This document shows, piece by piece, positions 1,774-59,061 of a DNA stretch of 64,000 nt (position 1 is the first letter of the stretch; each line of letters starts with the position of its first letter). Where the stretch lies: positions 1 through 64,000 of the IMG/VR virus record IMGVR_UViG_3300031548_000001; one strand, given 5' to 3'. This DNA comes from a virus. The position numbers and the translations under genes were made by a program. The notes under the pieces were generated by a model. It worked only from the letters and a program-made list of their open reading frames with translations, was not told where the DNA came from and ran no database searches.

Positions 1774-2076
1774 TCAGGCAACTTTGGATTCGGTCACGGC
1801 GCCGGCCGTGGCTTTGGGCTTACGCAGAACTTTGTAAGCGCGAAATTCAGGGTGGTTGAAGATCCAGTCTTGGATGCGGCGCACCGTGGTGAATCGACCA
1901 GACCATGGGCAGTCAGGTTGGCCGCGTGATGCGGCACGGATTGCGGTGATAGTCCAGCGGCCTACTCCGCAGGCTTTGGCAATTTTCTTTTCACCAAAAA
2001 TCAAGTCATCAGGACCGACTTTTTTTTCTGTGAGGCGCTTTTTAATAAGCTTACGGCGGGATAGTATTCGGGTCAT
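1774..2076 (-). CDS. Small basic putative DNA-binding protein
   Basis: KIAKACGVGRWTI is HTH-like; start moved to ATG 2076 behind a CCCGAA leader. Confidence 0.55.
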   Translation of the reverse strand: MTRILSRRKLIKKRLTEKKVGPDDLIFGEKKIAKACGVGRWTITAIRAASRGQPDCPWSGRFTTVRRIQDWIFNHPEFRAYKVLRKPKATAGAVTESKVA

Positions 2077-2286
2077 TTCGGATCGGGTTCGTTTCGGGTT
2101 CGGGTATCGGGGAAAACCCCTGTGGGTGCCTAACGGTGGCAAGCAGTATTAGTCCGAAATCTAAATGCAATAATACTTTTACCTGATTTTCATAACTGTT
2201 TTTTCCGCAGTCATCTGAATCTTTTTTTAGCTAAAATCTCCTGCAAATTCCCTGTATCCATTGATAAAATACTAAATTTTTATCGG

Positions 2287-2769
2287 TCAAGTTATGGCCT
2301 TTTTACTTTCAAATGGCTGCTGAAGAATGCTTTTTATTTCCAACCACCGGTCGCGTTCAGCTGGTGTCTGGTCAACATTGGCCGCTTCTACCTCGGCAAA
2401 GAACACAGCTTTTTTTAACGCCTCGCGCATGGATGGCGCCATGTGGATCAGGTGTGCAGCATCTATCCACTCATCTTCTGAGAGCAGCTTTTCCTTTTCA
2501 CTTTTGCTCGCTGACTTTCCAAGTAGTCGAACAACAACGCCGACGGTGCATTCGCCACGGGCCAAGAATGCAGTTTGTGGCCCCAGGTCGTCGATTCGAT
2601 CAAACGAATGCCTGCCCGTCCGGCTCATTAAGTGGCCGGTATGGTTGTAGGGGTAGGTTTTTTTACAAAAGACACAATCATCGTCATGCCACGTATTAAC
2701 GTGAATAGACGACAATCCTACTGCGCATTTATTGCTTTTTACTAGCCGAACAAACCCGATTTTTAACAA
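2287..2769 (-). CDS. Hypothetical phage protein
   Basis: Low-GC ORF; AHLIHMAPSMREAL resembles the common phage ARLIAAAPELL motif; start uncertain. Confidence 0.5.
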   Translation of the reverse strand: MLKIGFVRLVKSNKCAVGLSSIHVNTWHDDDCVFCKKTYPYNHTGHLMSRTGRHSFDRIDDLGPQTAFLARGECTVGVVVRLLGKSASKSEKEKLLSEDEWIDAAHLIHMAPSMREALKKAVFFAEVEAANVDQTPAERDRWLEIKSILQQPFESKKAIT

Positions 2770-2773
2770 ATCT

Positions 2774-5364: not shown

Positions 5365-5663
5365 AGGCGTCCCTCCGCTTTGACGATGGCAGCGCGGGCG
5401 GCCTTCTTTTTTTTCACCCAGTCCGGGGCGCACTGGCTGTCTTCTGCGGCGAGAATTCGGAGATGGTCTAACAGCTCCTGAGCGGCGATGAACAGCCGGG
5501 CATTCGCGAGCGCTGTCTCGGGATTGGATGGCGAGCCTTTGCGCGTGTCCGTAGTGCGGTCAGTAGGGAAGCTGCAAACCACACGGTTCAGCTGGTCGAA
5601 AATGGCATTCGGTGCGCCGTCGGCGTAGGTGCCAAAGGTAAGAGGAGATGAAGCGGGGATCAT
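5361..5663 (-). CDS. Hypothetical phage protein (ANARL..AA..LL family)
   Basis: Motif ANARLFIAAQELL; ATG 5663 behind a CCCGAA leader. Confidence 0.7.
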   Translation of the reverse strand: MIPASSPLTFGTYADGAPNAIFDQLNRVVCSFPTDRTTDTRKGSPSNPETALANARLFIAAQELLDHLRILAAEDSQCAPDWVKKKKAARAAIVKAEGRL

Positions 5664-5721
5664 TTCGGGATTCGTTTCGGGTTCGGGTGTCTGACGGACA
5701 TCAAACAATCCGAACGATGCA

Positions 5722-5734
5722 TTAAAGTAAAGAG
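5722..5734 (-). promoter_or_regulatory. CTCTTTACTTTAA motif, copy 1 (putative early promoter/operator)
   Basis: Same motif at 19301 and 26777, each just downstream of a terminator. Confidence 0.65.
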
Positions 5735-5738: not shown

Positions 5739-5770
5739 AAAAAGGCGCAGAGGAATAATCCCCTGCGCCT
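5739..5770 (-). terminator. Intrinsic terminator
   Basis: AGGCGCAG...CTGCGCCT stem followed by a T tract. Confidence 0.8.
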
Positions 5771-5788
5771 CGTCCCGTCCGATGCCGT

Positions 5789-7555
5789 TCACTGGAACAG
5801 ATCGTCGCTGGCCTTTATCTCGTTCCCTCGGTTTATCAGCTCCAGCGTTCGGAGCGATGACAGGGCGTTGTTGAATCCCCCTCCTGTTACCTCGTAGCCA
5901 GCTTTGGCTGCCAGAGCTTCCTTGGACAGCGCGTGCGGATAGACATTGAACAGAGCTGCCATGATCGAGCGTTGTGCCTTATCGAGCCGGCTCAGCCACA
6001 GCTGCCGTAGTGCATCGCCGGTCGGCAATGGATCGTAGGCACCGAGAGCCTGAATGCCTCGGTTCATTATAGCAATCTTGTCGCCTTCAAAACCGATATA
6101 CGGGGCCGACTCTTTGTTGCGCAACGCGGAGATCGAGTTATTGAAGCCTCCACCCGTGACCGCGTAGCCAGTGACCGCAGCCAGCTTGTTCTTGGTGCAC
6201 GGACCAAACTGGACCAGCGCAGTAAGGATCGAGCGTTCCGCCTTCGGCATAGTCTCACCAGCAGCTTTGGTGTTTATCAAACGGGTATTCTTTATCACTT
6301 CCTCGACGTGCGTGACGTCAATTTTAGGTGCTGTAACCGTGATCTTATAATCACGTCCACCATCCACAGGTCCCATGATCTTGCTGAGTTCAGCTTCGGC
6401 ACGAGCCTTAAGCTTTTGAGCAAAATTACCTAGGTCTATTGCCTCTCCAAGTGCCCATTGTAAAAAATACTTCGTGGTTTGCTGTCCTTCCAGAAAGCCA
6501 CTTGAGCGTGCAGCTTCAATCGCGGATCCCTTAGATTCCTTGGGGACCGATTTAAGGAATGCCTCTCGCTCTAGTTCTGCGATGCGCAGCCGAAGCGCCT
6601 TCGGGTCATCTGCCTTCACTCGCTGCACTGTGTCGGCGATTTCCTTGCCGAGCGCGGCGACGTCCACCGCGGCGAGGCGCTTCGGCATGACGATCACTTG
6701 TCCGGGCTTGGGGGTGGCGCCGCTGTCGTAGGTCTTTCGTTTGCGGACCTTCACACGGGCGAGCACATCCAGCCAGCCAGGCGACCAAAACCACGCTTCA
6801 CCGATCGGCAGACTTGGCAGGCTCTTGATGAGCACGTCGGCTTGCTCCTCGGTCGCATGCACCTCCACCCATTCACGGATGGCAGCGATGTCCTTCGGGT
6901 GAACCAGCCGGAGCGTCACGAGCACCTCGCATTGCGTGAGAACGTTTTTATTGAGCACCGCCGGCCGCTGGGTGATGAGCGTGCAGCCGATGCCCTTCTT
7001 TCGACCGCGGCGCACGATGTCTTCCATTGCGCCAAGGACTCGAGCCTCGTCTCCAAAAGGGCGTTGTGGTGCGTAGTCGTCGGCCTCGTCACAGACTAGG
7101 TGCACAGGGTTTCGGTTGAGGCGATAGAGCGTCTCGAAGAAATCAGCGAGGAACCGGCGAGACTGGCCTTTCTTGAAGTGCGACAGGTCGATCACGGCAG
7201 ACACGCGCTTGTCGATCAGCGTGCGGGCAATGACCTCGCCGGCGGTTTCCTCAAGCGGGATGTCGGCATGGTCACCACCGAACACGACGACTTCGTAGGC
7301 TGGCCGCTCACCGTCTTCGGACGACTTCAGGCCCCACCATGCACCGGTGGGATCAATTGCGACGACATGCTGGCCAGCATCGAGCAGCTCTTCCGTGAGC
7401 ACCGCGGCAGTGTAGGTCTTGCCGACACCACGCTTGGCGAGGATGGCGACGGTCTGGGTGGTGATGTCTAGGGGAAGGTCGAACTCCATGCTGTTCGCAT
7501 GGCTCGTGATGCTGGCCGGATGGCGTTGGCCTAGGTGGATGGGATGCGTTTTCAT
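5789..7555 (-). CDS. HerA/DUF87-like ATPase with C-terminal winged-helix-like repeats
   Basis: AKRGVGKT Walker A, VAIDPTG, VCDEAD Walker B, RRGRKKG, ITQRPA; two GYxVTGGGFNN repeats. Confidence 0.85.
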   Translation of the reverse strand: MKTHPIHLGQRHPASITSHANSMEFDLPLDITTQTVAILAKRGVGKTYTAAVLTEELLDAGQHVVAIDPTGAWWGLKSSEDGERPAYEVVVFGGDHADIPLEETAGEVIARTLIDKRVSAVIDLSHFKKGQSRRFLADFFETLYRLNRNPVHLVCDEADDYAPQRPFGDEARVLGAMEDIVRRGRKKGIGCTLITQRPAVLNKNVLTQCEVLVTLRLVHPKDIAAIREWVEVHATEEQADVLIKSLPSLPIGEAWFWSPGWLDVLARVKVRKRKTYDSGATPKPGQVIVMPKRLAAVDVAALGKEIADTVQRVKADDPKALRLRIAELEREAFLKSVPKESKGSAIEAARSSGFLEGQQTTKYFLQWALGEAIDLGNFAQKLKARAEAELSKIMGPVDGGRDYKITVTAPKIDVTHVEEVIKNTRLINTKAAGETMPKAERSILTALVQFGPCTKNKLAAVTGYAVTGGGFNNSISALRNKESAPYIGFEGDKIAIMNRGIQALGAYDPLPTGDALRQLWLSRLDKAQRSIMAALFNVYPHALSKEALAAKAGYEVTGGGFNNALSSLRTLELINRGNEIKASDDLFQ

Positions 7556-7590
7556 TTCGGGTGGTGAGCTGCGGTGAACGTGGGGTGCGA

Positions 7591-8405: not shown

Positions 8406-9682
8406 TAGGCGGCGTGTTGGCGGTAGAATTCAAGGGCGACAGGGTTGGCGCGGATGGAGTTTCCGGTGATGTCCGCGATGAAGAGGCCGGGCAGCGATCG
8501 AGCGCGGCTCATGGCGACGTAGGCCTGACCATCGGCGAAGCAGTTCTTCAGGTGCACGCGCACCTTATCGAGGGAAAGCCCTTGGGATTTGTGGATGCTG
8601 ATGGCGTAGCTGAGACGCAGCGGGATCTGCCGGCGAGATGCCTGCACCTCACGGTGGCGCATGATTGACCATTCCTGCGCTTCGATCTCGCGCTTGCAGC
8701 CGTTGGCGAACTCGACGACCGGGATCTGCTGTTGATACTGGCCAGTCTTCACTTCGACCAGCACGCCCAGCGAGCCGTTTACGAGGCCTTCCTCCGGTTC
8801 GATGTTGCGCAGAAGCATGACTTGTGCGCCGACCTTCAGCGTGAGCGTTTTCAGAGCGATGCAGTTGCGCTCAAGATTCGCCCGACTGAAATCACCATCG
8901 GCCCAGTCCGTCGATTCCCACGTGACCGCGGGCGTGGTGAGTGCCTCCAGTTTGTCGGAGTTGATCCGGTCTGCGATTTCGTTGTGCGTGGCCAGTGTCA
9001 CCGGCGTGATCTCCGGCGAGGTGTCCACGGCGTTTACTCGAGGACGCAGCACCGAGCGGACATCCTCCCACGTGTCACCGATACGGACACGGCTCAGGAT
9101 GTTGGCGAACTCGCGGTCCTTTTGGCGCATGACCTCTGTGAGCAGGAACACACCGATGTCGGCACGTTGCCAGCTCTGGGACTCGAACGCGAACCGCACG
9201 GCTTGGCCTTTCTCGCCGACGGGCGGGAGTTGGAGAAAGTCGCCGAACACGATCAGCTGAATTCCACCGAACGGGCGAGCATCACCGCGCACGAGTTGGA
9301 GAACGCGATCTACTTTATCCAGCGTTGGGGCATCGACCATGGAGATTTCGTCGATGGCGAGGCGCTTCGCTTTGCGCATCTCATACCAGACCGCTCCTTT
9401 CTTTTTCAGCATGCCGGCGGCGATCTCGTCCGCCGTCTTGTTGCCGATGCCGAGGCCTGCCCAGCTATGCAGCGTGCAGCCGTTGACGTTGAGCGCGGCG
9501 ATGCCGGTTGAGGCGGTGACGGGCAGGTCTTTGTATTCGCCACGAAGATAATTCAAGAGGGCTGATTTGCCGGTGCCGGCGGGGCCGGTCACCATCGTGT
9601 TCTTGCCGCTCGCAATGCGCTCAGCTGCCAGCCGTTGCTTGGCGTTGAGCTGTTGAAAGGTGATAGTCGGTTCTGGTTTCAT
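8405..9682 (-). CDS. Pif1-family SF1B helicase
   Basis: GPAGTGKS, IDEISM, PFGGIQLIVFGDFLQLPPV, QIPLRLSYAISIHKSQG and GQAYVAMSRAR; start 9682 behind a leader. Confidence 0.93.
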   Translation of the reverse strand: MKPEPTITFQQLNAKQRLAAERIASGKNTMVTGPAGTGKSALLNYLRGEYKDLPVTASTGIAALNVNGCTLHSWAGLGIGNKTADEIAAGMLKKKGAVWYEMRKAKRLAIDEISMVDAPTLDKVDRVLQLVRGDARPFGGIQLIVFGDFLQLPPVGEKGQAVRFAFESQSWQRADIGVFLLTEVMRQKDREFANILSRVRIGDTWEDVRSVLRPRVNAVDTSPEITPVTLATHNEIADRINSDKLEALTTPAVTWESTDWADGDFSRANLERNCIALKTLTLKVGAQVMLLRNIEPEEGLVNGSLGVLVEVKTGQYQQQIPVVEFANGCKREIEAQEWSIMRHREVQASRRQIPLRLSYAISIHKSQGLSLDKVRVHLKNCFADGQAYVAMSRARSLPGLFIADITGNSIRANPVALEFYRQHAA

Positions 9683-9744
9683 TTCGGGTTCGGGTCTCTG
9701 CAAAGGGTGAGGCGCGGCCGTGAAATGGCCGCGCCAAGGACTTA

Positions 9745-12075
9745 TTATCCGACGTTGATCAGATTCAGGCGTCCGGTCGTCTGCTCCACGTCGAGGCACT
9801 TCGCGAGCGCCGGGTTCTCGGGGCCGATCACGATGAACTGGTCAATGTCGCCATCGTCCACCATGCCGCACAGGTTGGTGATGAGCTTCTGTGCGTTCTG
9901 GACGTCGAGACGTCCGATCTCATCCAGCATCAGCACGCGCAGCTTCGACTTTGCGGCGAGGCCGGCAGTCAGGCCCATCATCACGATGGCCGTCTCGGTG
10001 CCGGAAAACACGCGGGCGCTCACGAATGAGTCGCCGACGCGCATCCCGATTTCTCCCTCCTCGAACACGAGCTTTCCTTTCAGGATGCCGGCGCCGAGTT
10101 TGTTGGCCACGGCCAGAGGGGTTTCGATGCTGCCGGAAACGAGTTCGGTCTTCTTCTGGGTCAGCACATCGAGCACTTTGCCGAGCAGCTTGTATTCGGA
10201 TTCGACGGCTTCGCGCTTGGCCGCGGCTTCCTGGATGCGCTTTTGGTCCTGCTCGGCAGCGGTGATCTCGGCGAGCGTGGCAACGGCCTTTAGCGCGTCG
10301 GAAGACTTCGCCTCCACGTCTTTCTTGAGCGCTGCAATCGCGTCAGCATCGGGAGTCTCCGACTGACCAGCGGCGTTGAGGCGTTCGAGTTCATCACTGG
10401 CAGCACGGGCAGACGTGAGGGCGTCACGCGCCTTCATGTGCTCGTTGCGCACGTTCTGCAGGTTGGCCTTGGCGGCGGACACGGCTTGGAACGCTTCGCT
10501 TGTATCCTTCTCGGCCTGTGCCAGCTCGGCAGCCGTAGGCTCGGCTCCAGCTTGGGGCAGTGTGGCCAAGTGCTCAGCGGCCATCGTGGCGCGTGTGAGC
10601 GCGGCCTGAAGCGTGGTGAGCGAGCCCTTGGTATTCTTCAGGACCGACTGACGGCCTTGGTATGCATCTTCGAGGGCCTGCACCTCTTCGTGGGCTTCGA
10701 TCACGGCCTGAGCCAGCTCGTATTCCTTGAGGCGGGATTGTTCTTCGGATTCCTCCGTTTCCTTTGAAAGCCCGCGCCAGTCTTCGATGGATTCTATTGT
10801 TATCGCGCCGCCTTCACCGAGTGAGATTACGCATGTTGCGAGATAATGGGTGCCGGCCACGGCGCCGGTGGAGAAGTCGTCCGTGCGAATCTCGGCTTCG
10901 GCCTGCAACGCTTTTGGTGCATTGGCTTCGGCCTGCGCTTTTTCAAGCACGACTTTGGCCTCGGTGATTTTCTGGCTGAAATTGGCGATCTCCGATTCGA
11001 TGCGGTCAATGGCAGCCTCGGCATCAGCAACGGCCTGCGTGAGGTGCCCAGACTTATACGCTTCGGCGGTGAGTTGGTCACGGCGAGTCTTCGCGGCGTT
11101 CGCCTCGGAGGCGAGGCGGTTAAGGCGTTCGCGTGCTTCGCGCTTCTCGTTGTAAGTGGCCGAAGTGGTTTCGACTTTGGACTCAGCGGCGGCAACGTCC
11201 AGTGCAATGAATGCCTCCATCTGGATCTTCTCGGCCAGGGCCGCGGCGATGGGAGCAATCTCGGCGCGGCGCTGACGGGCGCGGTTGGCGTGAGCGATCG
11301 TGGCCTCGGCGGCGGCGATTCGGCTCCGGAGTGTGATCAAATCGGCGTCGAGTTGCGCCCGGTAGGCTTCGACCTCATGACGGGGCGGAAGTGCCTTGGC
11401 GTCGGCTGCGTTCAGATCCGCCACCCCTTCGACCGTGGACTGCATGCGAGCCTTTTCGGCGTTCACGATCTTACGCTTTTCTTTGAAGAACGCGTCGGAG
11501 TCGCTGATCAGGTCGCTGATGGTCTTGGCCTTAGCCTTCACGACATTCAGCCAGCTTTCGTAGAGCGGCCACATGGCCTCTTTCTTAACGACAGCCTTGC
11601 CCGGGGTGGTGTCGATGCCGAGCACGCCGGCGATTGCCAGAGCGATGTCGTCGGCTGTCACACCTTCGCTCTGAACCAACTCGCAGGCCTTGGTGATGCG
11701 GGCGGCGTCGGAGAGATCGAAGAAGATGCTCGGGTCGAACAGCACGCGGGTGGCTTCGTCGAGTTCTCCTGCAAGGGTCCAATCGACCGTTTGTTTCACT
11801 GTGCCTTTCGGCTTTTCGAATGCGATGCTGGGCGTGCGCATCTCGACGTTGGCGTCGATGCGGGCGCTGATCTGCATCGGGTAGCCGCTGGCGAACTGCT
11901 TGATGCCGGCCGCGGTCTTGGCCGAATCAGGGACGTAGCCAATGACGAGCAGCCGTATGGCTTGGTCGATGGCGGATTTGCCGGAGAAGTTCCGGCCCTG
12001 AATGAGCGTGCCGGTGCCAAACGTGTAGTTGGCGGTCACACCCTTGAAATTGGTGACTGAGAGATTGGAGATCAT
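9745..12075 (-). CDS. SbcC/Rad50-like SMC ATPase
   Basis: TNFKG, GRNFSGKS, long coiled coil, FSGTE signature, LMLDEIG; start 12075 behind a leader. Confidence 0.85.
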   Translation of the reverse strand: MISNLSVTNFKGVTANYTFGTGTLIQGRNFSGKSAIDQAIRLLVIGYVPDSAKTAAGIKQFASGYPMQISARIDANVEMRTPSIAFEKPKGTVKQTVDWTLAGELDEATRVLFDPSIFFDLSDAARITKACELVQSEGVTADDIALAIAGVLGIDTTPGKAVVKKEAMWPLYESWLNVVKAKAKTISDLISDSDAFFKEKRKIVNAEKARMQSTVEGVADLNAADAKALPPRHEVEAYRAQLDADLITLRSRIAAAEATIAHANRARQRRAEIAPIAAALAEKIQMEAFIALDVAAAESKVETTSATYNEKREARERLNRLASEANAAKTRRDQLTAEAYKSGHLTQAVADAEAAIDRIESEIANFSQKITEAKVVLEKAQAEANAPKALQAEAEIRTDDFSTGAVAGTHYLATCVISLGEGGAITIESIEDWRGLSKETEESEEQSRLKEYELAQAVIEAHEEVQALEDAYQGRQSVLKNTKGSLTTLQAALTRATMAAEHLATLPQAGAEPTAAELAQAEKDTSEAFQAVSAAKANLQNVRNEHMKARDALTSARAASDELERLNAAGQSETPDADAIAALKKDVEAKSSDALKAVATLAEITAAEQDQKRIQEAAAKREAVESEYKLLGKVLDVLTQKKTELVSGSIETPLAVANKLGAGILKGKLVFEEGEIGMRVGDSFVSARVFSGTETAIVMMGLTAGLAAKSKLRVLMLDEIGRLDVQNAQKLITNLCGMVDDGDIDQFIVIGPENPALAKCLDVEQTTGRLNLINVG

Positions 12076-12143
12076 TTCGGGATTCGTTTCGGGTTTCTGA
12101 AATTGGGTGGGCACGCTGTTTTGAGACAACGTGCCCTGTTTGA

Positions 12144-12217: not shown

Positions 12218-13075
12218 TCAGTTGAACGGCACGCCTTCGCGGCGAGCGCCAGCGCCTTCAGCGGGCTGCTGCGTGTTGGACTGGCTGTTGAACTTGGCGT
12301 CTTCCTCGTCAACGAGCTGGAATGCCTTCATCGGGAAGTGCTCAAGCTCGGCAGGTTTCTGTGTCCAGCACGCATTGACCATAAGGCCCATCGCGATCTT
12401 CTCCACCAATTCAGCCGACGGCTTGCCGAGAACGTTGTCGTGGCGTTTGTTCACGTCGGCGATCAGGTTAATGGAGGCGTCAAAGCAGCGATTCAGCGCG
12501 GCGGCCGTGCGGGCGATGCGCTTATCAAAGCTCTTCATTTCGTTGGCGCGGAGGGTGCGTTTGTCGGCAATTCCTCCGGCTGGTGGCTGGTTGCCATTGC
12601 TGTTCGCCTTGGACGGGCCGTTGCCATTCCCGTTTCCGTTGGTGTGGCCATTGGTAGCGGGTGGCGTGTTGGACTGCTGAGCAGGCGGCTGATTCTGTTG
12701 AGCCGGGGGCTGAGTTCCGCCGCCAGCACCCTCAAAGCTCACGTCGGCGCCGTCGTAGATCCACACCTGTGGAGCGTTATTCTTCTTGGCGTTGACCTTG
12801 CGCTTCAGGCCGTTGATTCCGCGGTCACCACGGTAAGCGACAGCGTAAATTTGTGAGCCCTCCATAGTCCGAGGGACATCTTCAGCCCGGTTATCTAAGA
12901 TGCATTCAATCTCCTTCGCGCCATCAGTAATGACGAGTTTCTGGAGCTTCCAAGGCTTAGGATCTCCTTCCTTGGAGGCGAAGGGTTTCATAACACTCTT
13001 GATTTTGCCGCGAAAAGCTTCGGGCACGGTGCCGTCGCTCATTTCGAGCAACTGGGATACGGTATAAACGATCAT
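12218..13075 (-). CDS. Putative OB-fold ssDNA-binding protein
   Basis: N-terminal beta-rich RPA/SSB-like pattern, Q/P/N/G linker, EGVPFN tail. Confidence 0.5.
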   Translation of the reverse strand: MIVYTVSQLLEMSDGTVPEAFRGKIKSVMKPFASKEGDPKPWKLQKLVITDGAKEIECILDNRAEDVPRTMEGSQIYAVAYRGDRGINGLKRKVNAKKNNAPQVWIYDGADVSFEGAGGGTQPPAQQNQPPAQQSNTPPATNGHTNGNGNGNGPSKANSNGNQPPAGGIADKRTLRANEMKSFDKRIARTAAALNRCFDASINLIADVNKRHDNVLGKPSAELVEKIAMGLMVNACWTQKPAELEHFPMKAFQLVDEEDAKFNSQSNTQQPAEGAGARREGVPFN

Positions 13076-15188: not shown

Positions 15189-15226
15189 TTCGGGTTCGGG
15201 TCTCTAAAGTGATAGGCGCTGCTGGC

Positions 15227-47965: not shown

Positions 47966-50900
47966 TTATGCGTTACCGACGCGATGGCCGGTGATGGTGT
48001 GAACGAGTTGATCGGTGCCGTTGCTGTTTGCCCAGAGGTCAACAGTGGCGTTGAAACGGGTGGCAAGGGTCACGTCGTTGAGTCCGGCGGCGGCGGTGAT
48101 GCCGGAGGCGTATTGCGTGCCCGCGCTCGCATTGCCCAGGCTGACGGTTTTTGACGTGCCAAGATTGTTGATCACCCAGCTGTCGATGCGGTGGCGGTTG
48201 GTCTCAATGAACACGCTCCCGCCGAGCAGCTGCTGATTGCCGCTCGTCGCTGTCGATGTGACGATGCGCCAGTCGCGCTTCTGAGTGGTCGGCGTCATGC
48301 CGACCAATCGGGCGCAGTTGCCGCCGATGGTTGTCCAGTCGTCGATGACGGGGATTGGTTGAACACCGGGAAGGGAAATAGCGCCGACCCGATTGGCTTT
48401 CACATTCTTAAAATAGGCTTTGTCGCCGGTGCCCAATGTGCCGCCCGAGTTTGGGGCGACCGATAGGCGGAATTGTAGCCCGCCACCGATCCATGGAATC
48501 GTCAGGTCGTAGGAAGTCCACGTGTCGGCGACAGGCTGAACCGCAAACCCAGTGAGCGCCGAATTATCGTTTCGGATACCAATATATACGCCCGTCGTGT
48601 TGGCCGAAGGCCGATAAACATCAAACCGGAGTCGAATGTATGCGCCGTATTGAATGGATGAAGCGAATCCCCTGTTTGCGGCGGCGGAAGTTCCGCCACC
48701 GGTATTGAGCTCAAGGACGTTATCCACCCCACCGATACTATCGACGTTACCAACGACGGCACCGTTCGACGCGCTCCACGAATCAACTCCAGCCGAGAAG
48801 TCGGAATTAATTTCAAGGACTTGGCTACCGCCGAACGCTACCCACGCCGGAGGCTTGCCCGTGGTCCGCCAGGCAGTTCGTTCGGCATCCGTGAGCGAAG
48901 CATTGATCCAACATCCGACGGGCGCGGGGCCAGCGGGCCAATTTAGGCCGATCACGTAGGTTGTGCAATTCAGGCTAGAGTCCAGCCAGTTGGGTGGGGT
49001 TCCAGTAACGGTCGGACCGGAAATTAATGTGGAAATATCTACATCATTAAAATACGCGGACGGGTTAGTTGTGCCGGTTGCAAACTTGAGCTCCAAGAAA
49101 CCGCCGTTGGTCAGATAGCCGGATCGGAACCCGCTGATACTTACCGAGCGTCGATCTCCATTAACCGCGCCGACCGCTTCGATGCTCAAAAGCCCAGAGG
49201 TATTGATATAGACTTCCAAGCGGTGCGCAATTCCGTTGCCTCCGTCGCTACTGATTATCGCCAACCAGCAAGTCGCCGCTGGATTGGTTGCCATGGGAGG
49301 CACCCAAAGCCGGAGTGCTGCAACAGCTGCCCCAGCGACATTGCCGCGAGCGCCCGGTGTTTGCCGGATGGAACGGTTGCTCGTCGCTCCATCGGAGATG
49401 ATCTGGTCGGAGCCAAGGCGCTGAGCGAAGATCGGTTCGGCATAAGCCTTTAGCGTGGTGGTGGTAACCCTACCCGTCGGGGCAATCGGCAGCATTCCTG
49501 TCAGCGTCGCGATATTCTGGCCGATGGATGTGACGTCGTCGATGTATGTGCTCTGAACACTCGGCAGGGAGAGGGCGCCACCCGAGAAAAGTTCGACGTC
49601 GTCGAGGTCGATTGAGTCCCCAATTGATCCGCCTGCGCCCGCCCAAGAAAACGTGAGCCAGCTACCGGAGGCGGCGGTAAGCTCGAACGTCAGTATGTAT
49701 TGAACCCACGACCCAGTTGGGACGATGGTCTGTCCAGCGCTGGCTGCGCCAGCGCCGAATGGCTTGTTAAACGCGACAACGATCCCCGGTCCGGCGATGC
49801 CAGTTGTTGAGCGAATCCAAAACCTAACTTGCACCTTGCCGCCGATGAAATTGATAGTCGGATTTGCCATGCCTGTGAGGCTGCCATTGCGTCCGGCCGT
49901 CGTTGCGGATTGAGCGATTCGGATGAAAAAACTACCGGCACCCCCATCACGGGCTCCCGCCTCCGAAGTCACGGTAGCGGATGAGCCTTGGGTGTCTGTC
50001 GTGACATTAGCGTCGGTGCTACCCAACGAGAATGCGCGGGCTGACGGCACCCCGGTTACGGTACTACCTCCGAATGAAACCCACGCGGGCGGCGTTCCGG
50101 TCGTGTCCCAATAGGTGCGTTCTGCATCACTCAAAGCGCCAAGAATCCAGCAACCGAGCGGGGCCGGGCCAGCGGGCCAGTTGTAGCCAGTCGTATGATA
50201 CGTCGAAACAAGGGCAGTATCTAGCCAAGCTGGCGGTGTGCCGTTGGTGCTGGCGGCAAAACCCGCGCTGATATCCACGCCATTCCATCGCACAACAGGG
50301 TTGGTTGTGCCTTGGACCAAATACACCTCAAGGGTCCCGGTTTGGCCGGAGTAAATCGTCCGAAACGTGCTATGGTTAAACAGCCGGAGGTCTGTCGCCA
50401 CACTTGCCCCGTCTGCACGGATAGTAAGCGCATTGCCGCCAAATCGAATGTCGATGTGGTGCGCAAGAATCCCAGGCTCGGAGCCCGACGCACTCGCCAA
50501 TCCCGCCACATACGCCGTGCCGGATGGGGCACTTGACGGCACCGTGATCCGCCCGCGCCACGTCGCCGCCGCCGCGCCCGCGAGCCAGCCACGCGTCCCC
50601 GAGAAGAACGGTCCTTGTATCTGTGCCCGGTTGGCCGTCGTGCCGTCACTGTAGATATAACCCGTGTCGCGCACCCACGCGTTGAAGCGGTCGTCAATGA
50701 GCGTTTGATGTCCAGAGTAGTATCCCGGGAGCTGTGTCCACGAGCCGGAAACGCCGTTGTAGATCGCGGCGTCGCCGATTGCCCAGGTCTTGGACTGGGA
50801 CGTGCCGGCGGACGTGATGCGGTAGTGATCGCCCGTCGCCGTCGAGGTCGCAGGCACCGATGCGCCGGCGAGACCACCCTTGAATGCCTGCGCGATCGCG

Positions 50901-51376
50901 TTGAGCGCGGTCGCCGCAGACGCCGCAGCTTCATTCGCTTTGGTGGTTGCAGTCGCAGCTTGTGCGGTCGCGGTAGTCGCTTGAGTCGTGGCAGTCGTGG
51001 CAGATCCAGCCGCAGCCGTCGCCGACGCCGAAGCAGCGCTTGCTTGAGTTGTGGCGGTGGTGGCGGATGTTGCAGCAGAGGTCGCGCTGGTTGCAGCCGC
51101 CGTTTCGCTCGTCGCCGCGGCAGTGGCTGACGTGGCAGCCGCAGTGGCCTGAGTGGTCGCCGTTGTGGCGCTGGTTGCAGCAGCCGTAGCTGAGGTCGCA
51201 GCATTACTCGCTGAAGTTGCAGCTGCCGTCGCCGAACCGGCCGCAGCCGTGGCACTGCCCGCAGCTGCCGTTGCTGATGTTGCGGCAGCGGTAGCGCTGG
51301 CAGCTACGGCGGCTGTCAAATCAGTTTGGATTTGAGCGATAGCACTTGCCTTGAGGAGTTCTACGGTGGTGGACAT
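47966..51376 (-). CDS. Large fibre / receptor-binding protein
   Basis: SATAAA-type stalk repeats followed by a duplicated beta-rich module. Confidence 0.8.
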   Translation of the reverse strand: MSTTVELLKASAIAQIQTDLTAAVAASATAAATSATAAAGSATAAAGSATAAATSASNAATSATAAATSATTATTQATAAATSATAAATSETAAATSATSAATSATTATTQASAASASATAAAGSATTATTQATTATAQAATATTKANEAAASAATALNAIAQAFKGGLAGASVPATSTATGDHYRITSAGTSQSKTWAIGDAAIYNGVSGSWTQLPGYYSGHQTLIDDRFNAWVRDTGYIYSDGTTANRAQIQGPFFSGTRGWLAGAAAATWRGRITVPSSAPSGTAYVAGLASASGSEPGILAHHIDIRFGGNALTIRADGASVATDLRLFNHSTFRTIYSGQTGTLEVYLVQGTTNPVVRWNGVDISAGFAASTNGTPPAWLDTALVSTYHTTGYNWPAGPAPLGCWILGALSDAERTYWDTTGTPPAWVSFGGSTVTGVPSARAFSLGSTDANVTTDTQGSSATVTSEAGARDGGAGSFFIRIAQSATTAGRNGSLTGMANPTINFIGGKVQVRFWIRSTTGIAGPGIVVAFNKPFGAGAASAGQTIVPTGSWVQYILTFELTAASGSWLTFSWAGAGGSIGDSIDLDDVELFSGGALSLPSVQSTYIDDVTSIGQNIATLTGMLPIAPTGRVTTTTLKAYAEPIFAQRLGSDQIISDGATSNRSIRQTPGARGNVAGAAVAALRLWVPPMATNPAATCWLAIISSDGGNGIAHRLEVYINTSGLLSIEAVGAVNGDRRSVSISGFRSGYLTNGGFLELKFATGTTNPSAYFNDVDISTLISGPTVTGTPPNWLDSSLNCTTYVIGLNWPAGPAPVGCWINASLTDAERTAWRTTGKPPAWVAFGGSQVLEINSDFSAGVDSWSASNGAVVGNVDSIGGVDNVLELNTGGGTSAAANRGFASSIQYGAYIRLRFDVYRPSANTTGVYIGIRNDNSALTGFAVQPVADTWTSYDLTIPWIGGGLQFRLSVAPNSGGTLGTGDKAYFKNVKANRVGAISLPGVQPIPVIDDWTTIGGNCARLVGMTPTTQKRDWRIVTSTATSGNQQLLGGSVFIETNRHRIDSWVINNLGTSKTVSLGNASAGTQYASGITAAAGLNDVTLATRFNATVDLWANSNGTDQLVHTITGHRVGNA

Positions 51377-53522: not shown

Positions 53523-53611
53523 TCAACGTCCTCCGGTGGGTGCATCGGGCCGGTGTCTTTCCAAACGATCACAAGCACTGCAATTATGGCGATGATAGCG
53601 ACAGTCTTCAT
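53519..53611 (-). CDS. 30-aa membrane peptide
   Basis: MKTVAIIAIIAVLVIVWKD... behind a leader. Confidence 0.6.
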   Translation of the reverse strand: MKTVAIIAIIAVLVIVWKDTGPMHPPEDVE

Positions 53612-53680
53612 TTCGTTTCGGGTATCTGCCCCCACGAATGACGCAGCGTCGATGTCGTCAAACTCTACGCATGAAAAAGG

Positions 53681-53888
53681 TGAGAGCGGGAGGATTTGAA
53701 CCTCCGAAGGCTGTAGTCCGATTCCCATTCTGGAATCATTCTCCTTTGCGTGAGCGGCGGGACGCTTTTACCACGCAAATTAGCGGAGAATTTTGGCCAG
53801 CCCTATGACCCGCATCCTGCTATTATCTGGTCACTGCATTCGACCTATACGTTTCGTTGCCTACCGCGTATGCCTGTGCCACGCTCTC
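53681..53888 (-). ncRNA. Large tRNA-like RNA (208 nt) with a multi-hairpin domain replacing the anticodon loop
   Basis: Perfect acceptor GAGAGCG/CGCTCTC-A-CC; T arm GGAGG-TTCAAAT-CCTCC; GTAG/CTAC stem enclosing ~145 nt of hairpins. Confidence 0.8.
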
Positions 53889-56487: not shown

Positions 56488-57942
56488 TCATGCGAGGAGC
56501 AGGCGATGCTGGCCTGCGAGCATTTCCCAGAGCACAGTCACAGCGTCGATTTGGTCGTCATGTGCGCCGTCCGGGAACTGCTCAAGCTCATCAAGGAAGT
56601 CTTGATTCCACTCACCTTCGACCATGAAGAATTTACCGCCGTCGATCTTGGCTATCCACGGCAGCGCACGGACGAGCTTGTCCGATGTCGGCGTGTAGCT
56701 GGTGACAATGACGCGGCCCTTGTAGTGCGTTCGGATGTCCGTTGCTGCCACTTCCCAGGCACCGACGGCCTCGATACCTACTCGTTTACCGATCGCCTCG
56801 CGCTCGATGTATTTGAAGAGCGTCGCCTTTTGCTCAGGCCACAAGCGCCTCGCTCGGTCCATGTGCACGAGGTAAAAGTTTCCATCCTTGTCCATGCACC
56901 CGTAGGCACCGGCTGAGTAGTCGCTCAGGTTCGTCTTGGATACAGCCAAGTCCCAGCCGCGCACCATCTCGCGTCCGGTCGGCACCTTTGAGCGAGGTAT
57001 TGTGACGATCTTCTTGATGTCGGTGATCGCGCCGCCCGGCGGGTTGGGCCTCTGCTGGTAGAGCGCGTTCCACTCGTAGCTTCCGATCTGTATTTTTTGA
57101 GCACCGAGCCACTTTTCATCGCGAACCTCGGGCCAGAGGGCTTGGCCTATCTTGCGCCCCATCTCGTCCGTGTCTGGGTTCTCGCACAACGCTTCGAGGC
57201 TGAGCACCTCGAAGTTCACGTCATCGAAACCGGCCTCCTTTAACGCGGCGACACGCTTGGGATCTTGGAGACGGCCAGCCAAGTCATCTTTGTGCCAGCG
57301 CGTCTGGATCACGATGACGATGCCGTCGGGAGCCAAACGGGTCATGGCGGTGGACGTGAACCACTCCCACACCTTATCGCGTTGCGTCTGTGAATTCGCC
57401 TCGGCGCGATCCTTATGCGGGTCGTCGATCAGCAGGATGTCGGCAGGCATACCTGTGCCGCCACCCACCGACGTTGCGAAGTAGTGCCCACCCAAGCGTG
57501 TCTGCCAGTAGTCCTCGCGGTTGACGCGTGGATTGATGAGCTCAGGGAAGAACTGCTTGTAGCGTTCGCTCTGGACGAGGACGCGAGCCTCACGCGAAAA
57601 GCCAGTCGAGAGCGTGGCCGTGTGCCCGGCCTGCATGATACGCAGTGTCGGGAACACCGTGAGCGCCCACGCCGCGAAAATGATCGATGCCAGGCGCGAC
57701 TTACCGTGCTGCGGTGGCACGTTGATGATGAGCCGGCGAATGCCTCGACTGAGGCACTTCATTAGCTTGCGGGCGAGCAGACGGTGAAACTTCGCCGCTA
57801 CCCATCCGGGATAAAACGCCTCGCCAAAGGTAGCCAGCGACTTCAAGCACGCCGCACGCGTGACCTTGGCCAGCCCCTTCAGTGGCAGCGGTTCAAGTTG
57901 GGTCCGGCGTGCTGGTAGCTTCGGCTGGACGGTCTTTGTCAT
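56488..57942 (-). CDS. terL: Terminase large subunit
   Basis: PPQHGKS, LIDDPHK, QTRWHKDDL, LYQQRP, WDLA, HDDQIDA. Confidence 0.96.
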   Translation of the reverse strand: MTKTVQPKLPARRTQLEPLPLKGLAKVTRAACLKSLATFGEAFYPGWVAAKFHRLLARKLMKCLSRGIRRLIINVPPQHGKSRLASIIFAAWALTVFPTLRIMQAGHTATLSTGFSREARVLVQSERYKQFFPELINPRVNREDYWQTRLGGHYFATSVGGGTGMPADILLIDDPHKDRAEANSQTQRDKVWEWFTSTAMTRLAPDGIVIVIQTRWHKDDLAGRLQDPKRVAALKEAGFDDVNFEVLSLEALCENPDTDEMGRKIGQALWPEVRDEKWLGAQKIQIGSYEWNALYQQRPNPPGGAITDIKKIVTIPRSKVPTGREMVRGWDLAVSKTNLSDYSAGAYGCMDKDGNFYLVHMDRARRLWPEQKATLFKYIEREAIGKRVGIEAVGAWEVAATDIRTHYKGRVIVTSYTPTSDKLVRALPWIAKIDGGKFFMVEGEWNQDFLDELEQFPDGAHDDQIDAVTVLWEMLAGQHRLLLA

Positions 57943-58597
57943 TCTGCTTTTCGGCCTGTTCGTCTTCGATCATTCGCTCGTAGTGGCGTCGCAGGATCGC
58001 GTCTTGGTCTTCGTCGTTGAGCGCGATGTTTGCCGTGACGAGCGGTCCACCGTCGGCGCCGGTCAGCTCGGTCTTGGTCGGAGCAGCCAAGCCCAGCAGC
58101 TTCACACGCCGGTCATGCACATCGAGAATCTTGGCGATGAACGCCGGATCACCCGCGCTGGTTGTCTGCACCGCGGACTTGGTCTCGGTGCCGCCACCGT
58201 CCGAAGCAGCCGCGCCTTCGCCTTTCTTCGCCGCAGCCGCTTTCTTCGTGAGTGTCGTGCGCGAGGTGGCCTGCTTCGATTTGTCCCAAGCGTCCCAAGC
58301 CTCCGACTCCACCACATCGAGCTTACGCAGCTCCTTCTCTTTCTCTGCACCGACCATGGCCAATGACTCTTGGCGCCATGCCTCCTTCAGCTTCTTCAGG
58401 TCAGCACCGACCTGGGCGTGGCTGATCGTGTAGGGACGCTCTTTGGCCAGCAGTTCCGCGATCTGACGCAGCGTCTTACCCCGCAGGGCATGACGCTCAA
58501 TGAAAAGCATGTCGGCCGCCTTCTGGGTGGACGTGCGCTTGTTCGCCGTGGGCGGCTTCGGTGCCGTCGGCGTGGGTGACTGTGGCGTCTCGCTCAT
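57893..58597 (-). CDS. terS: Terminase small subunit
   Basis: N-terminal HTH and RRVKLLGL.AP.K.ELTGADGGP; upstream of terL. Confidence 0.8.
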   Translation of the reverse strand: MSETPQSPTPTAPKPPTANKRTSTQKAADMLFIERHALRGKTLRQIAELLAKERPYTISHAQVGADLKKLKEAWRQESLAMVGAEKEKELRKLDVVESEAWDAWDKSKQATSRTTLTKKAAAAKKGEGAAASDGGGTETKSAVQTTSAGDPAFIAKILDVHDRRVKLLGLAAPTKTELTGADGGPLVTANIALNDEDQDAILRRHYERMIEDEQAEKQNDKDRPAEATSTPDPT

Positions 58598-58878
58598 CAG
58601 GCCTGAGCGACAGGGGCAACCTTCGGCACGAAACCAAGCTCGATGGCCTCTTCAGGCGAAAGCTTAGCGGCTACCGATTTACGCAACTCAGCTTGCTTGA
58701 TGATAAGCTCAAGTTTGTCGGACAGATCTCCAGTAAAATAGATGTTCTCAATGACCATATGAGCGCACGGCCTGCGTTCTTTGGTCGGATCGGTTGCCTG
58801 CACTTCAGCATCAAACTGTTTACAGAGTTCAAACAGACGCGCTGACGCTTCGAGAATACTGGCCTTCGTTTCTTTCAT
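58597..58878 (-). CDS. Hypothetical protein
   Basis: Behind a leader; KLSPEEAIELG. Confidence 0.65.
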   Translation of the reverse strand: MKETKASILEASARLFELCKQFDAEVQATDPTKERRPCAHMVIENIYFTGDLSDKLELIIKQAELRKSVAAKLSPEEAIELGFVPKVAPVAQA

Positions 58879-59061
58879 ATCGTTTCGGGTTCGGGTTTCG
58901 GATCAATGCTCAGAGGCAATGCTGCCGCCGCGCTTCAGACGTGTTGGTGTGGGCGCGTTCAGTATCCTGTCAAAACCTACGTGCTTTTTTGTTTTGCCCG
59001 CTGGGCATTACAGCGCCGGGGGAGGCTCACGGCGGCCCGACTTGGCTTCTGTGCCGTGGCC

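Follow-up and report, generated by a model that had tools for sequence, protein, structure and literature searches.

CCCGAA-type repeats directly upstream of start codons in a Verrucomicrobia prophage and its relatives: a putative clade-private translation-initiation leader

Results

Runs of CCCGAA-type repeats precede start codons of a Verrucomicrobia prophage

The DNA analyzed here is a 64,000-nucleotide stretch (hereafter the window) of a 95,020-bp viral contig (IMG/VR record IMGVR_UViG_3300031548_000001). Positions 1–100 of the window, a tRNA-Ala att site, match a 4.1-Mb bacterial genome (G102) at 99%, and the phage is a 95-kb prophage of a Verrucomicrobia bacterium. In the prophage and its relatives, runs of CCCGAA-type repeats lie directly 5' of about 40 start codons. 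A first-pass annotation had claimed such a motif before 23 starts in the window, and all 23 are indeed - strand ATGs, each with the motif upstream in 1–5 units per site. These sites, which we refer to as leaders, are listed below.

2074-2104, - strand: leader, 4 units, before ATG 2076 (100 aa)
5661-5694, - strand: leader, TCAGACA plus 4 units, before ATG 5663; terminator and promoter-like box upstream
7553-7561, - strand: single CCCGAA adjoining ATG 7555 (HerA-like, 588 aa)
9680-9701, - strand: leader, 2 units, before ATG 9682 (Pif1-type helicase)
12073-12100, - strand: leader, CCCGAA-ACGAA-TCCCGAA, before ATG 12075 (SMC-like, 776 aa)
13073-13123, - strand: longest leader, 5 units, before ATG 13075
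15186-15207, - strand: leader, 2 units, before ATG 15188 (PAPS-reductase-like); no box; stop of the preceding gene ~24 nt upstream
15500-15526, - strand: leader before ATG 15502, immediately 3' of a tRNA-like RNA
17683-17715, - strand: leader, 4 units, before ATG 17685 (C5 DNA methylase)
18182-18203, - strand: leader, 2 units, before ATG 18184 (GNAT acetyltransferase)
19249-19269, - strand: leader before ATG 19251; terminator and box upstream
22508-22516, - strand: single CCCGAA adjoining ATG 22510
24616-24649, - strand: leader, 3 units, before ATG 24618 (DUF5131)
25839-25867, - strand: leader, 3 units, before ATG 25841
26725-26751, - strand: leader, 3 units, before ATG 26727; box at 26777-26788
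39232-39266, - strand: leader before ATG 39234; T-run of a terminator upstream
40014-40047, - strand: leader, AGAGA plus 2 units plus a 12-nt spacer, before ATG 40016
41238-41264, - strand: leader, 3 units, before ATG 41240
43797-43824, - strand: leader before ATG 43799; alternative ATG 43807 lies 8 nt upstream
44095-44122, - strand: leader with a CCTGAA end, before ATG 44097
45938-45961, - strand: degenerate GAA-periodic leader before ATG 45940 (major capsid); the G304 orthologue is GAA-periodic too
53609-53629, - strand: leader before ATG 53611; TTGACG 28 nt upstream
58876-58902, - strand: leader, 3 units, before ATG 58878

The sites at 7555 and 22510 (a single CCCGAA), 45940 (degenerate), and 53611 (which opens an ORF of only 30 codons) are weak ones. 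Leaders also precede virion genes (39234-45940 and 58878) and thus occur in both genome arms. Each consists of 1–5 units of 5–6 nt of the form NN-YGAA, in which GAA is invariant; CCCGAA comes first and is followed by ACGAA, TCCGAA, or CTGAA, the units being preceded by an A-rich prefix that reads AGAnA in the present phage, and the unit period often runs on into the second codon (AUG-AA).

The distribution of the motif is markedly asymmetric. CCCGAA occurs 72 times in the window compared with 46 ± 7 times in shuffled sequences, with 66 of the 72 copies on the - strand; over the whole contig, 113 copies lie on the - strand (the gene strand) and 9 on the + strand. The pattern AGANACCCGAA has 23 matches on the - strand and 0 on the + strand, and CCGAA-N0-7-YGAAATG is found 23 times on the gene strand of the 95-kb phage, 0 times on the opposite strand, and 0 times in the reversed control. 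Tandem runs number 51 in sense and 7 in antisense orientation in the prophage, the expectation being 5.5 from the density in the host and 10.8 (maximum 21) from Markov shuffles. For 35 of the 51 sense runs, the end lies no more than 12 nt from an ATG with an ORF of at least 40 codons; this count is confined to ATG by design and rests on gene calls from a crude ORF heuristic made for this analysis. The last GAA directly adjoins the ATG in 21 of these 35 starts, and 20 of the 35 have AAx as their second codon. The motif is therefore strand-specific and tied to start codons, as had been claimed.

It had also been proposed that the motif marks cistrons that need fresh initiation, and this view is supported, as genes whose start overlaps the stop of the preceding gene (ATGA-coupled) mostly have no leader. 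The + strand genes encoding integrase, the LamG/PEP-CTERM protein, UmuD, SRAP, and UmuC likewise all lack it; these accessory genes are presumably expressed in the lysogen.

Related phages retain the leader, and one lineage has changed its word

Besides the present phage (G000), leaders are carried by three IMG/VR phages (G304, G306, and G307), a prophage in genome G319, and a metagenome contig (L057). Three related phage lineages with 35–63% protein identity retain the leader at orthologous starts. Between G000 and G304, about 20 orthologous starts, at 35–63% amino acid identity, have a leader in both phages, and these leaders differ in the number and type of units, i.e. the units turn over. 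A fourth and more distant lineage, the G323 prophage, has a changed word, CCTGAA, in the form ACCTGA(A), which occurs 25 times upstream of starts compared with 1.9 expected and 60 times on one strand compared with 11 on the other; 16 of the 31 tandem matches in the G323 genome fall inside the prophage.

A promoter-like box precedes a minority of leaders

Upstream of some leaders in the window, we noted a promoter-like box that is private to these phages, as well as hairpins resembling intrinsic terminators.

5722-5733, - strand: promoter-like box TCTTTACTTTAA, ~36 nt 5' of the GTCAG of the 5663 leader
5742-5771, - strand: intrinsic-terminator-like hairpin, 13 pairs, just 5' of the box (5663 leader)
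19296-19307, - strand: promoter-like box upstream of the 19251 leader
19315-19346, - strand: intrinsic-terminator-like hairpin, 13 pairs, just 5' of the box (19251 leader)
26777-26788, - strand: promoter-like box upstream of the 26727 leader

The spacing from the TTTAC of the box to TYAG is mostly 36–37 nt. The AGAnA that had been included in the consensus is present in this phage; it is, however, not uniform and mainly accompanies the box, and the AGAnA/GTCAG prefix thus appears to be largely tied to a promoter or transcript start. The distance from the prefix to the ATG varies from 11 to 47 nt.

Phage-specific promoters of the T4-late or T7 type have a fixed distance to the transcript start and a cognate sigma factor or RNA polymerase encoded by the phage. 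Here, the private box lies at a fixed distance from GTCAG, and we considered whether the repeats act in DNA, either as stoperator-like sites for a repressor or activator or as part of a phage-specific promoter. Box and GTCAG lie ahead of about one-quarter of the leaders, and the phage encodes HTH and S24-type proteins. Further, the stoperators of Cluster A phages (named in PMC3203893) are strand-specific repeats in short intergenic gaps, and the leaders resemble them in being multicopy, asymmetric, co-oriented with transcription, and located in such gaps. However, stoperators are single 13-bp sites with no fixed relation to start codons, whereas the units here are in tandem, adjoin the ATG, and keep their period into the second codon, and variable-number direct repeats of 5–6 bp would be unusual as operators. 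Moreover, 84 of the 113 leaders across lineages (74%) have no box, and the overall logo of leader upstream regions contains nothing conserved 5' of the prefix. Apart from the KH protein described below, a scan of ~100 phage proteins revealed no sigma, RNA polymerase, or further RNA-binding domains, and no Escherichia coli-type promoters were found on the gene strand in 1–20 kb. We therefore regard a signal in DNA as improbable.

Alternatively, GTCAG/AGAnA and the repeats could set the mature 5' end of the mRNA, by initiation or endonuclease cleavage, or protect the message, and so affect translation only indirectly. GTCAG does lie at the distance behind the box expected of a transcript start, the GTCAG/AGA prefix also occurs at internal, boxless leaders in this phage, and the leader regions are U-poor (8–12% U). 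On the other hand, the relatives keep the units but have other short A-rich prefixes in place of AGAnA/GTCAG, the exact end of the repeats at the ATG is left unexplained, and no RNase domain was found among the phage proteins scanned. A role as a processing or stability tag is, in our view, very improbable.

The leader is absent from host genes, which rarely use Shine-Dalgarno sequences

In the 4.1-Mb host-like genome G102, CCGAA-N0-7-YGAAATG occurs 7 times compared with 6 in the control (23 in the phage), and CCCGAANCCGAA occurs 6 times compared with 5; in the phage, the latter pattern has 19 matches on the gene strand, 0 on the opposite strand, and 0 in the control. Across 41 family genomes (G102 and 40 others), leader counts were at the control level except in G319, where the matches cluster inside the related prophage, and in G338, where they belong to a coding tandem repeat unconnected with gene starts. 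CCGAA is present at 2% of host starts compared with 97% of leader starts, and CGAA at 0 of 24 host ribosomal-protein starts. The motif is thus phage-specific, as the first-pass annotation had inferred. Because host genes lack the word, the leader probably marks phage messages for translation.

The leader had further been suggested to sit where a Shine-Dalgarno site would be. The leader does not, however, take the place of such sites in a host that relies on them, because the host itself is Shine-Dalgarno-scarce: although the host-like 16S rRNA carries the canonical CCUCC tail (a normal anti-Shine-Dalgarno), GGAG, GAGG, or AGGA is found within 20 nt of only 11% of 284 host starts, and host upstream regions are G-poor. 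Some Verrucomicrobia are reported to be Shine-Dalgarno-scarce with CCUCC conserved (PMC10783764). Whereas a Shine-Dalgarno site complements the 3' tail of 16S rRNA at 5–10 nt from the start, the leaders contain no Shine-Dalgarno words, with GGAG or AGGA at 0 of 35 leader starts.

We also considered pairing of the leader with rRNA, at the helix-16 UUCGG loop or the 3' tail of 16S rRNA, instead of a Shine-Dalgarno interaction. ACCCGAA has a 7-nt complement in the host-like 16S rRNA, UUCGGGU at position 436, and the terminal UUUCU is a possible partner for AGAAA/AGAGA. However, the helix-16 sequence forms a closed UUCG tetraloop on the mRNA entry side of the ribosome, and this hairpin is conserved in most bacteria. 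The best 16S duplexes of three leader versions were no better than those of shuffled leaders, a fraction of 0.44–0.91 of which were equally good or better; the prefix lies at 11–47 nt from the ATG and is missing in relatives. The helix-16 idea of the first-pass annotation is thus not supported, and rRNA pairing in general is highly improbable.

The leader regions were the least structured class tested. Over positions -35 to +15, leader genes had a mean minimum free energy of -2.8 kcal/mol, whereas the remaining phage genes averaged -8.1 and host genes -8.0; random 50-mers reached -11.7. This could mean that the leader is a generic landing pad, i.e. that the host 30S subunit (with S1) prefers structure-free, A/C-rich, G-poor leaders without any dedicated reader, the uniformity of the word arising from slippage, gene conversion, or a copied cassette rather than from recognition. 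Initiation in Shine-Dalgarno-blind Bacteroidia is indeed tuned by structure and a few upstream A residues (PMC6847099), and the number of units varies freely among orthologues. Because host ribosomal-protein starts are likewise A/C-rich and G-poor (14% G), with GAAC in 25%, a reader-free effect could explain much of the benefit. Yet any A/C-rich sequence would then do, whereas one hexamer has been kept at ~40 loci and across lineages at 35–63% amino acid identity, and the fourth lineage has switched its word coherently at dozens of sites. Further, the best starts of the host lack the word, and at positions -1 to -3, where leaders have GAA, the host prefers CC. A purely generic pad is therefore unlikely, though it deserves to be taken seriously. 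On the sequence evidence, we lean, with some reserve, toward reading the repeats as a translation-initiation leader on phage mRNA that is private to this clade and independent of Shine-Dalgarno pairing.

A tandem-KH protein is a candidate reader of the leader

Because the word is uniform within each genome, absent from the host, and coherently changed between lineages, we infer that the phage makes a reader specific for this sequence. The first-pass annotation had also proposed a site for an RNA-binding protein, and the phage does encode a candidate: the one we favor is a 198-aa tandem-KH protein encoded outside the window (contig positions 84260-83664). It matches PF13083, the KH domain of KhpA/KhpB, with an E value of 7.5e-12 (45.4 bits; cut-off, 32.1), and its GxxG loop is intact (GAKG). 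The AF2 model (pLDDT 86.5) predicts two type II KH-like halves, with the topology helix-strand-strand-helix-helix-strand occurring twice and a hairpin insert in the second half; the best fold matches, all weak, are NusA KH1-KH2, uS3, and KhpB-RNA. With this predicted fold, the GxxG loop, and the above-cut-off match, the protein fits the KhpA/KhpB family of global KH RNA-binding proteins, for which RNA binding by KhpA requires the KH motif (bioRxiv 10.64898/2026.10.12.757534; PMC12408800). Unlike KhpA and KhpB, it joins two KH-like halves in one chain and lacks a partner with Jag-N or R3H domains; neither the phage nor G102 showed a KhpB-like gene, and G102 has no KhpA-type gene either.

Orthologues are encoded in G304, G319, and G323 and were not found in G102 or 38 other family genomes. 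Homologues are rare (only 17 clusters among 5.8 billion proteins), and there was no PHROG match. The association of KH gene and leader is not independent evidence because both occur within a single clade that shares many other genes. The G323 orthologue is the most divergent (31% identity), and its GxxG loop and neighboring strands differ; covariation of word and KH protein rests on this one lineage.

Discussion

The closest analogue of the leader appears to be the start-associated sequences (SAS) of Cluster K mycobacteriophages and their extended form, ESAS. SAS are short, asymmetric, single-orientation sequences a few nucleotides before the starts of many unrelated genes, with a strong preference for ATG; they are absent from the host genome and conserved across subclusters, and their reader is unexplained (PMC3203893, Pope et al. 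2011). The leaders are similar in having one orientation (51 compared with 7 runs), in lying near the ATG of unrelated genes (at distance 0 in 21 of 35), and in being common to related phages and absent from the host. However, the SAS is a fixed 13-mer, GGGATAGGAGCCC, with an AGGAG Shine-Dalgarno core, restricted to the non-structural arm, and 17-bp inverted repeats (the ESAS) accompany half of its sites (PMC3203893). The leader, by contrast, is a variable run of CCCGAA-type units of 5–6 nt with no Shine-Dalgarno core (0 of 35), occurs in both arms of a phage with a Shine-Dalgarno-scarce host, and is accompanied by a gene for a candidate reader; the leader regions have almost no structure, and their upstream alignments contain no ESAS-type inverted repeats.

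The leader also resembles the Shine-Dalgarno-independent initiation of Bacteroidia and of Shine-Dalgarno-scarce Verrucomicrobia, in which CCUCC is kept but hardly used and low structure and an A-rich context matter (PMC6847099, PMC7797042, PMC10783764). Those are diffuse, genome-wide host preferences, whereas the leader is a discrete repeated word of a phage clade.

A further comparison is with proteins that act on start regions. TRAP (GAG/UAG repeats) and HutP are ring or tandem proteins that read spaced triplets over start regions, HutP needing at least 3 triplets and TRAP 9–11, and RegA of phage T4 is a phage protein that acts on many start regions. The invariant GAA triplets, 2–3 nt apart and overlapping the initiation region, are reminiscent of such targets; 1–5 units are, however, too few for the 11-mer ring of TRAP, and no TRAP, HutP, or RegA domains were found with Pfam in the ~100 phage proteins scanned.

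We envisage that, at promoter-proximal genes, the private box TCTTTACNTTWA would be followed after about 30 nt by GTCAG, at the probable transcript start, and then by the leader, which would make up nearly the entire 5' untranslated region. Within operons, the leader occupies the gap ahead of cistrons without translational coupling. In either position, its A/C-rich, U-poor, and unstructured sequence would give the ribosome a place to land in a host that makes little use of Shine-Dalgarno pairing, and the leader would be recognized by the phage-made reader, each KH-like half of which could hold one unit. We somewhat favor a role in activating or licensing new rounds of initiation on messages of the lytic strand over a RegA-like shut-off.

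In the most specific form of this scheme, which we put forward tentatively as one possibility, the leader would be a private translation-start code: the tandem-KH protein would recognize CCCGAA (CCUGAA in the sister lineage) and deliver or admit host ribosomes, and protein and word would co-evolve like phage RNA polymerases and their promoters. If true, this would represent a virus-encoded, sequence-specific initiation factor in bacteria and show how start-associated sequences, which have long lacked an explanation, could work. The leader of the KH gene itself is atypical in every lineage, which fits autoregulation or nothing at all.

A prophage-like record with nearly all genes on one strand

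The window covers the first 64 kb of one 95,020-bp virus record, which opens with the following feature:

14-89, + strand: tRNA-Ala(GGC) gene at the record start, with an integrase-like gene next to it.

Apart from these two, nearly all genes lie on the - strand (the gene strand), including those for UvrD-, HerA-, Pif1- and SNF2-type helicases, for SSB, DnaN, a primase-helicase and several DNA methylases, and for the terminase, portal, prohead protease, capsid, tape measure and tail proteins. Window bases 1-100 matched G102, a 4.1-Mb host-like genome, at 99%, and the match ended just past the tRNA. This indicates, on sequence grounds, that the record is a prophage integrated at tRNA-Ala and that G102, itself non-lysogenic, is a close proxy for the host, which we assign through the attachment site. 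G102 shares its phylum, Verrucomicrobiota, with an Akkermansiaceae MAG. A megablast search with 20 kb of phage DNA found no match among GenBank phages.

Tandem GAA units precede start codons on the gene strand

The first-pass annotation had described a leader of tandem CCCGAA-type units directly before 23 start codons. We found the motif before all 23 (each an ATG), and the example quoted for 5663 reads exactly as it was written. The strand specificity claimed for it is borne out over the whole contig, where CCCGAA occurs 113 times on the - strand and 9 times on the + strand; the window holds 72 copies (shuffles: 46 +/- 7), of which the - strand carries 66. Similarly, AGANACCCGAA occurs 23 times on the - strand and never on the + strand, and the pattern CCGAA-N0-7-YGAAATG was found 23 times on the gene strand, with no match on the other strand or for the reversed control. 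When a run was defined as CCGAA followed by at least one further NN-[C/T/A]GAA unit, the gene strand had 51 runs and the other strand 7, compared with 5.5 expected from host density and 10.8 in Markov shuffles. An ATG opening at least 40 codons (phage genes were called by our own heuristic) lies within 12 nt of the run end in 35 of the 51 sense runs; the last GAA directly adjoins the ATG in 21 of these 35, and in 20 the second codon begins with AA, so that the GAA period crosses the start codon. Overall, we conclude that the leader observation is confirmed and that its extent exceeds the earlier count of starts.

Genes on the + strand had been reported to lack the leader, as had genes coupled to the one before. 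The former include an accessory cassette:

58794-59912, + strand: LamG/PEP-CTERM protein, in the accessory cassette 58794-62370, without leader.
59978-62370, + strand: UmuD-like S24 peptidase, SRAP and UmuC, in the same cassette, without leader.

Neither the + strand integrase nor the LamG/PEP-CTERM, UmuD, SRAP and UmuC genes carry it. Where a start overlaps the stop of the gene before, the leader is mostly absent too, a qualitative support only, the intergenic-distance statistics being blurred by missed small genes.

The word is foreign to a host that scarcely uses Shine-Dalgarno sites

The motif had been expected to be absent from host gene starts, and it was: the start-linked pattern occurred 7 times in G102 versus 6 for the control, compared with 23 versus 0 in the phage. 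CCCGAANCCGAA gave 6 matches in the 4.1 Mb of G102 versus 5 for its reversed control, and 19, all on a single strand, in the 95 kb of the phage. Across 41 genomes of the family of G102, CCCGAACCCGAA stayed at control level with the exceptions of G319 and G338. The 20 matches in G319 are clustered on prophage contigs. Those in G338 were rejected as leaders, being part of a coding tandem repeat; the locus (L121, G338:C1:3780000-3783000) consists of tandem ~500-bp repeats, each with CCGAACCCGAA(CCCGAA)GCC-GTGAACGAT, and looks like a repetitive coding region rather than a leader.

The leader sits where a Shine-Dalgarno site would be, and the first-pass annotation had drawn attention to this. The 16S rRNA of G102 has the canonical 3' end GAUCACCUCCUUUCU, and of 284 starts called crudely over 400 kb of this genome, 11% had GGAG, GAGG or AGGA within 20 nt. 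Because the host is Shine-Dalgarno-scarce, the leader does not substitute for a site that the host would expect, and we discard the notion of a replacement. Some Verrucomicrobia are listed in a survey (PMC10783764) as Shine-Dalgarno-scarce with CCUCC conserved, and the G102 data agree. Upstream regions in G102 are depleted in G, with C predominating at -1 and -2, and well-defined ribosomal-protein starts are A/C-rich (14% G), with GAAC in 25%, GGAG in 17% and CGAA in none. Phage genes without a leader have a host-like ACC-ATG context. In the leader, the richness in A and C and the poverty in G that mark the best host starts are taken further, but with a word foreign to the host.

We also note that, in the ribosomal-protein operons of G102 (L130, G102:C5:908001-928000), many internal genes have a purine patch and GAAC(A)C (e.g. 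GGAGAACAC and AAGAGAACAC) 8-14 nt upstream of the ATG, which the host may itself use as a weak ribosome-binding word with long spacing. Further, three unrelated host genes in the 400-kb sample (L024-L031) share the word CTACTCGCTACTT 15-20 nt upstream of their start codons.

Related phages keep the leader, and one lineage has changed its word

With the strict AGAnA prefix in the search pattern, matches in IMG/VR were due to chance only (L010), as were 45 of 46 metagenome loci, and the strict form of the motif gave three matches, all chance, in 185,579 species genomes (L011-L013). Terminase relatives in IMG/VR (~33% identical) are without the leader. Once the prefix was left out of the pattern, leader-bearing relatives were found:

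IMG/VR records: G304 (84 kb), G305, G306 and G307.
Other records: metagenome contig L057, and a prophage in the host-family genome G319.

G304 and this phage have ~40 orthologues in common, 35-63% identical in amino acids, and ~20 orthologous starts (e.g. those of the primase-helicase, DnaN, capsid and SMC-like genes) have the leader in both, differing in the number and kind of units. In L057, an identical 24-nt leader precedes a gene with 72% DNA identity. A more distant but syntenic prophage (40-70% identity), in the host-family genome G323, was reached with a profile of the tandem-KH protein described below. It has no CCCGAA bias and uses the word ACCTGA(A), of which the 30-nt stretches upstream of 65 ORFs contain 25 copies, compared with 1.9 expected, and which occurs 60 times on the gene strand compared with 11 on the other; of the 31 tandem copies in the genome, 16 fall within the prophage. 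This coherent swap indicates that the word is uniform within a genome and, judging from these lineages, can change coherently between them.

Leader anatomy and an associated promoter-like box

In all lineages the leader core consists of an A-ending prefix, a run of GAA units and 0-6 nt to the ATG, the units having an invariant GAA and a 5-6-nt period. Of the consensus proposed by the first-pass annotation, AGAnA stands as a local prefix in this phage and fails as a general element, relatives having TTAA, GAAA, GTA or TCA there; that strict prefix patterns gave chance matches and the prefix-free pattern found relatives likewise shows AGAnA to be private to this phage. A second motif was found in the upstream sequences:

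TCTTTACNTTWA, gene strand: promoter-like box, often directly behind a strong terminator hairpin.

Seven boxes occur in this phage, without exception on the gene strand, and six in G323, all within the prophage; G102 has none. In four records, 31 of 35 sense-strand boxes are followed by a leader after 25-75 nt. Of 29 leaders with a box, 21 have T[C/T]AG (as in GTCAG) ahead of their first unit, compared with 18 of the 84 that lack a box, and a spacing of 36-37 nt from TTTAC to TYAG is preferred. On the assumption that TTTAC(A/T) works as a -35 element, we infer that TYAG would be the expected transcript start. About a quarter of leaders are thus probably the whole 5' UTRs of transcription units; the remaining three quarters or so lie inside operons without a recognisable promoter. 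A scan of 1-20 kb found no E. coli-type promoters on the gene strand.

That the leader is a DNA-level operator or promoter part we consider improbable. Because the leader is tied to the ATG, carries its period into the second codon, is absent from coupled genes and is built from variable 5-6-nt units of a single-strand type, we propose that it would act at the RNA level, in translation initiation. A tag for RNA processing or stability seems marginally less probable still than the operator.

Leader regions (-35 to +15) have a mean folding energy of -2.8 kcal/mol, compared with -8.1 for other phage starts, -8.0 for host starts and -11.7 for random phage 50-mers, and the leader consists of 35-41% A, 34-35% C, 17-18% G and 8-12% U. 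Such openness would suit a landing pad that needs no reader. However, a diffuse liking for unstructured RNA would not predict a uniform, coherently changing word, and we think this explanation rather unlikely. That the word is private and evolves coherently points to a reader of the phage's own making and away from the unaided host ribosome. We lean, with some reserve, towards a translation leader that is private to these phages and read by a factor that they would encode.

RNA pairing partners

Pairing of the leader with 16S rRNA, which the first-pass annotation had raised as a weaker idea, found no support: for three leader versions, pairing with the host-like 16S was no stronger than that of shuffled sequences (0.44-0.91 of shuffles were at least as good). 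The leader does have a 7-nt match to UUCGGGU, which in 16S lies in the helix-16 tetraloop hairpin; we regard rRNA pairing as highly improbable. An antisense RNA was likewise rejected as the general reader of the leader, tandem TTCGGG having no copy on the gene strand. Three gene-strand RNAs were considered:

44194-44291, - strand: candidate small RNA, ORF-free, flanked by the capsid terminator and the next gene.
15531-15627, - strand: tRNA-shaped RNA with good acceptor and T arms.
53681-53888, - strand: tRNA-shaped RNA with good acceptor and T arms.

None of the three paired better with leader starts than with starts lacking the leader or with shuffled controls. In the candidate small RNA, TTGACG is followed by TTCATTTCAGGGTAT and an 11-bp T-tailed hairpin, and this unit holds the sole gene-strand copy of the complement of CCTGAAATGAA. 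Only the four starts ending in CCTGAAATGAA, at 44097, 77151, 83526 and 89451, are complementary to it, and it may be aimed at these four genes. The tRNA-shaped RNAs, both missed by ARAGORN and Rfam, are not antisense to the leader; the one at 15531-15627 ends a few nt before the 15502 leader and holds CAGACACC, identical to the leader prefix.

A tandem-KH protein is the leading candidate reader

A Pfam scan of ~100 phage proteins found an RNA-binding domain in one, a 198-aa protein encoded beyond the window at contig 84260-83664, which matches the KhpA/KhpB KH family above the curated cut-off (E 7.5e-12). Its AlphaFold model (pLDDT 86.5) has two type-II KH-like halves, the first with a GAKG loop and the second with a hairpin insert. 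Foldseek matches to NusA tandem KH (best E 1.2e-3), uS3 and RNA-bound KhpB were weak because the two halves are oriented differently. Orthologues occur in G304/G306 (45% identity) and in the prophages of G319 (47%) and G323 (31%), so that the protein is present in all four lineages with enough sequence to check, and in three of the orthologue records its gene has a short leader of its own. It was not found in 39 of 41 host-family genomes (G102 and 38 others), the two that have it being those carrying these prophages, and G102 has no KhpA-type protein above the cut-off. The family comprises 17 clusters among 5.8 billion proteins, matches no PHROG, and IMG/VR returned only the same clade.

Of the orthologues, that of the G323 prophage, in which the word has changed, diverges most; its GxxG loop is GKGG, and the adjacent strands differ. 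Drawn from one clade and this one contrast, the apparent association of KH protein and word is suggestive but weak. As the putative reader of the leader, the KH protein is the leading candidate, though less likely than not overall, and we put it forward tentatively.

Comparison with known start-associated sequences

Phage start-associated sequences have been known since 2011, their reader and mechanism being still unexplained (PMC3203893). The leader resembles those of Cluster K mycobacteriophages (PMC3203893) in position, orientation, ATG bias and absence from the host. Unlike the leader, however, the Cluster K sequence has a 13-mer with a Shine-Dalgarno core, is confined to one genome arm and has extended inverted repeats. 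By this analogy the leader is similar in its presumed working but not a member, and the Cluster K sequences are the nearest described system; our literature search found no paper describing this leader. The leader is tractable, its word being simple, repeated and free of RNA structure, and Shine-Dalgarno effects would hardly confound it, host pairing being nearly unused. The sister lineages, with one base per unit changed, offer a natural specificity swap, and the rare tandem-KH protein is one obvious candidate reader. If the link holds, it would show how a virus could earmark its own messages for translation where bacteria ignore Shine-Dalgarno sites, and the leader would be a portable expression signal for Verrucomicrobia, a hard group to engineer.

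Other features of the record

A 1136-aa head-module protein (47966-51376, - strand) has no Pfam or PDB sequence match, its first ~190 residues alone weakly resembling phage tail-fibre families. Beyond the window, a cluster at contig 64237-77151 (L104) encodes ParB-N domain proteins together with DUF1643, an N6/N4 methylase with an Mrr-N domain, a 696-aa protein with a C-terminal dATP/dGTP pyrophosphohydrolase domain and, at 68655-69554, a homologue of the Thoeris inhibitor Tad4, which suggests DNA modification and anti-defence functions.
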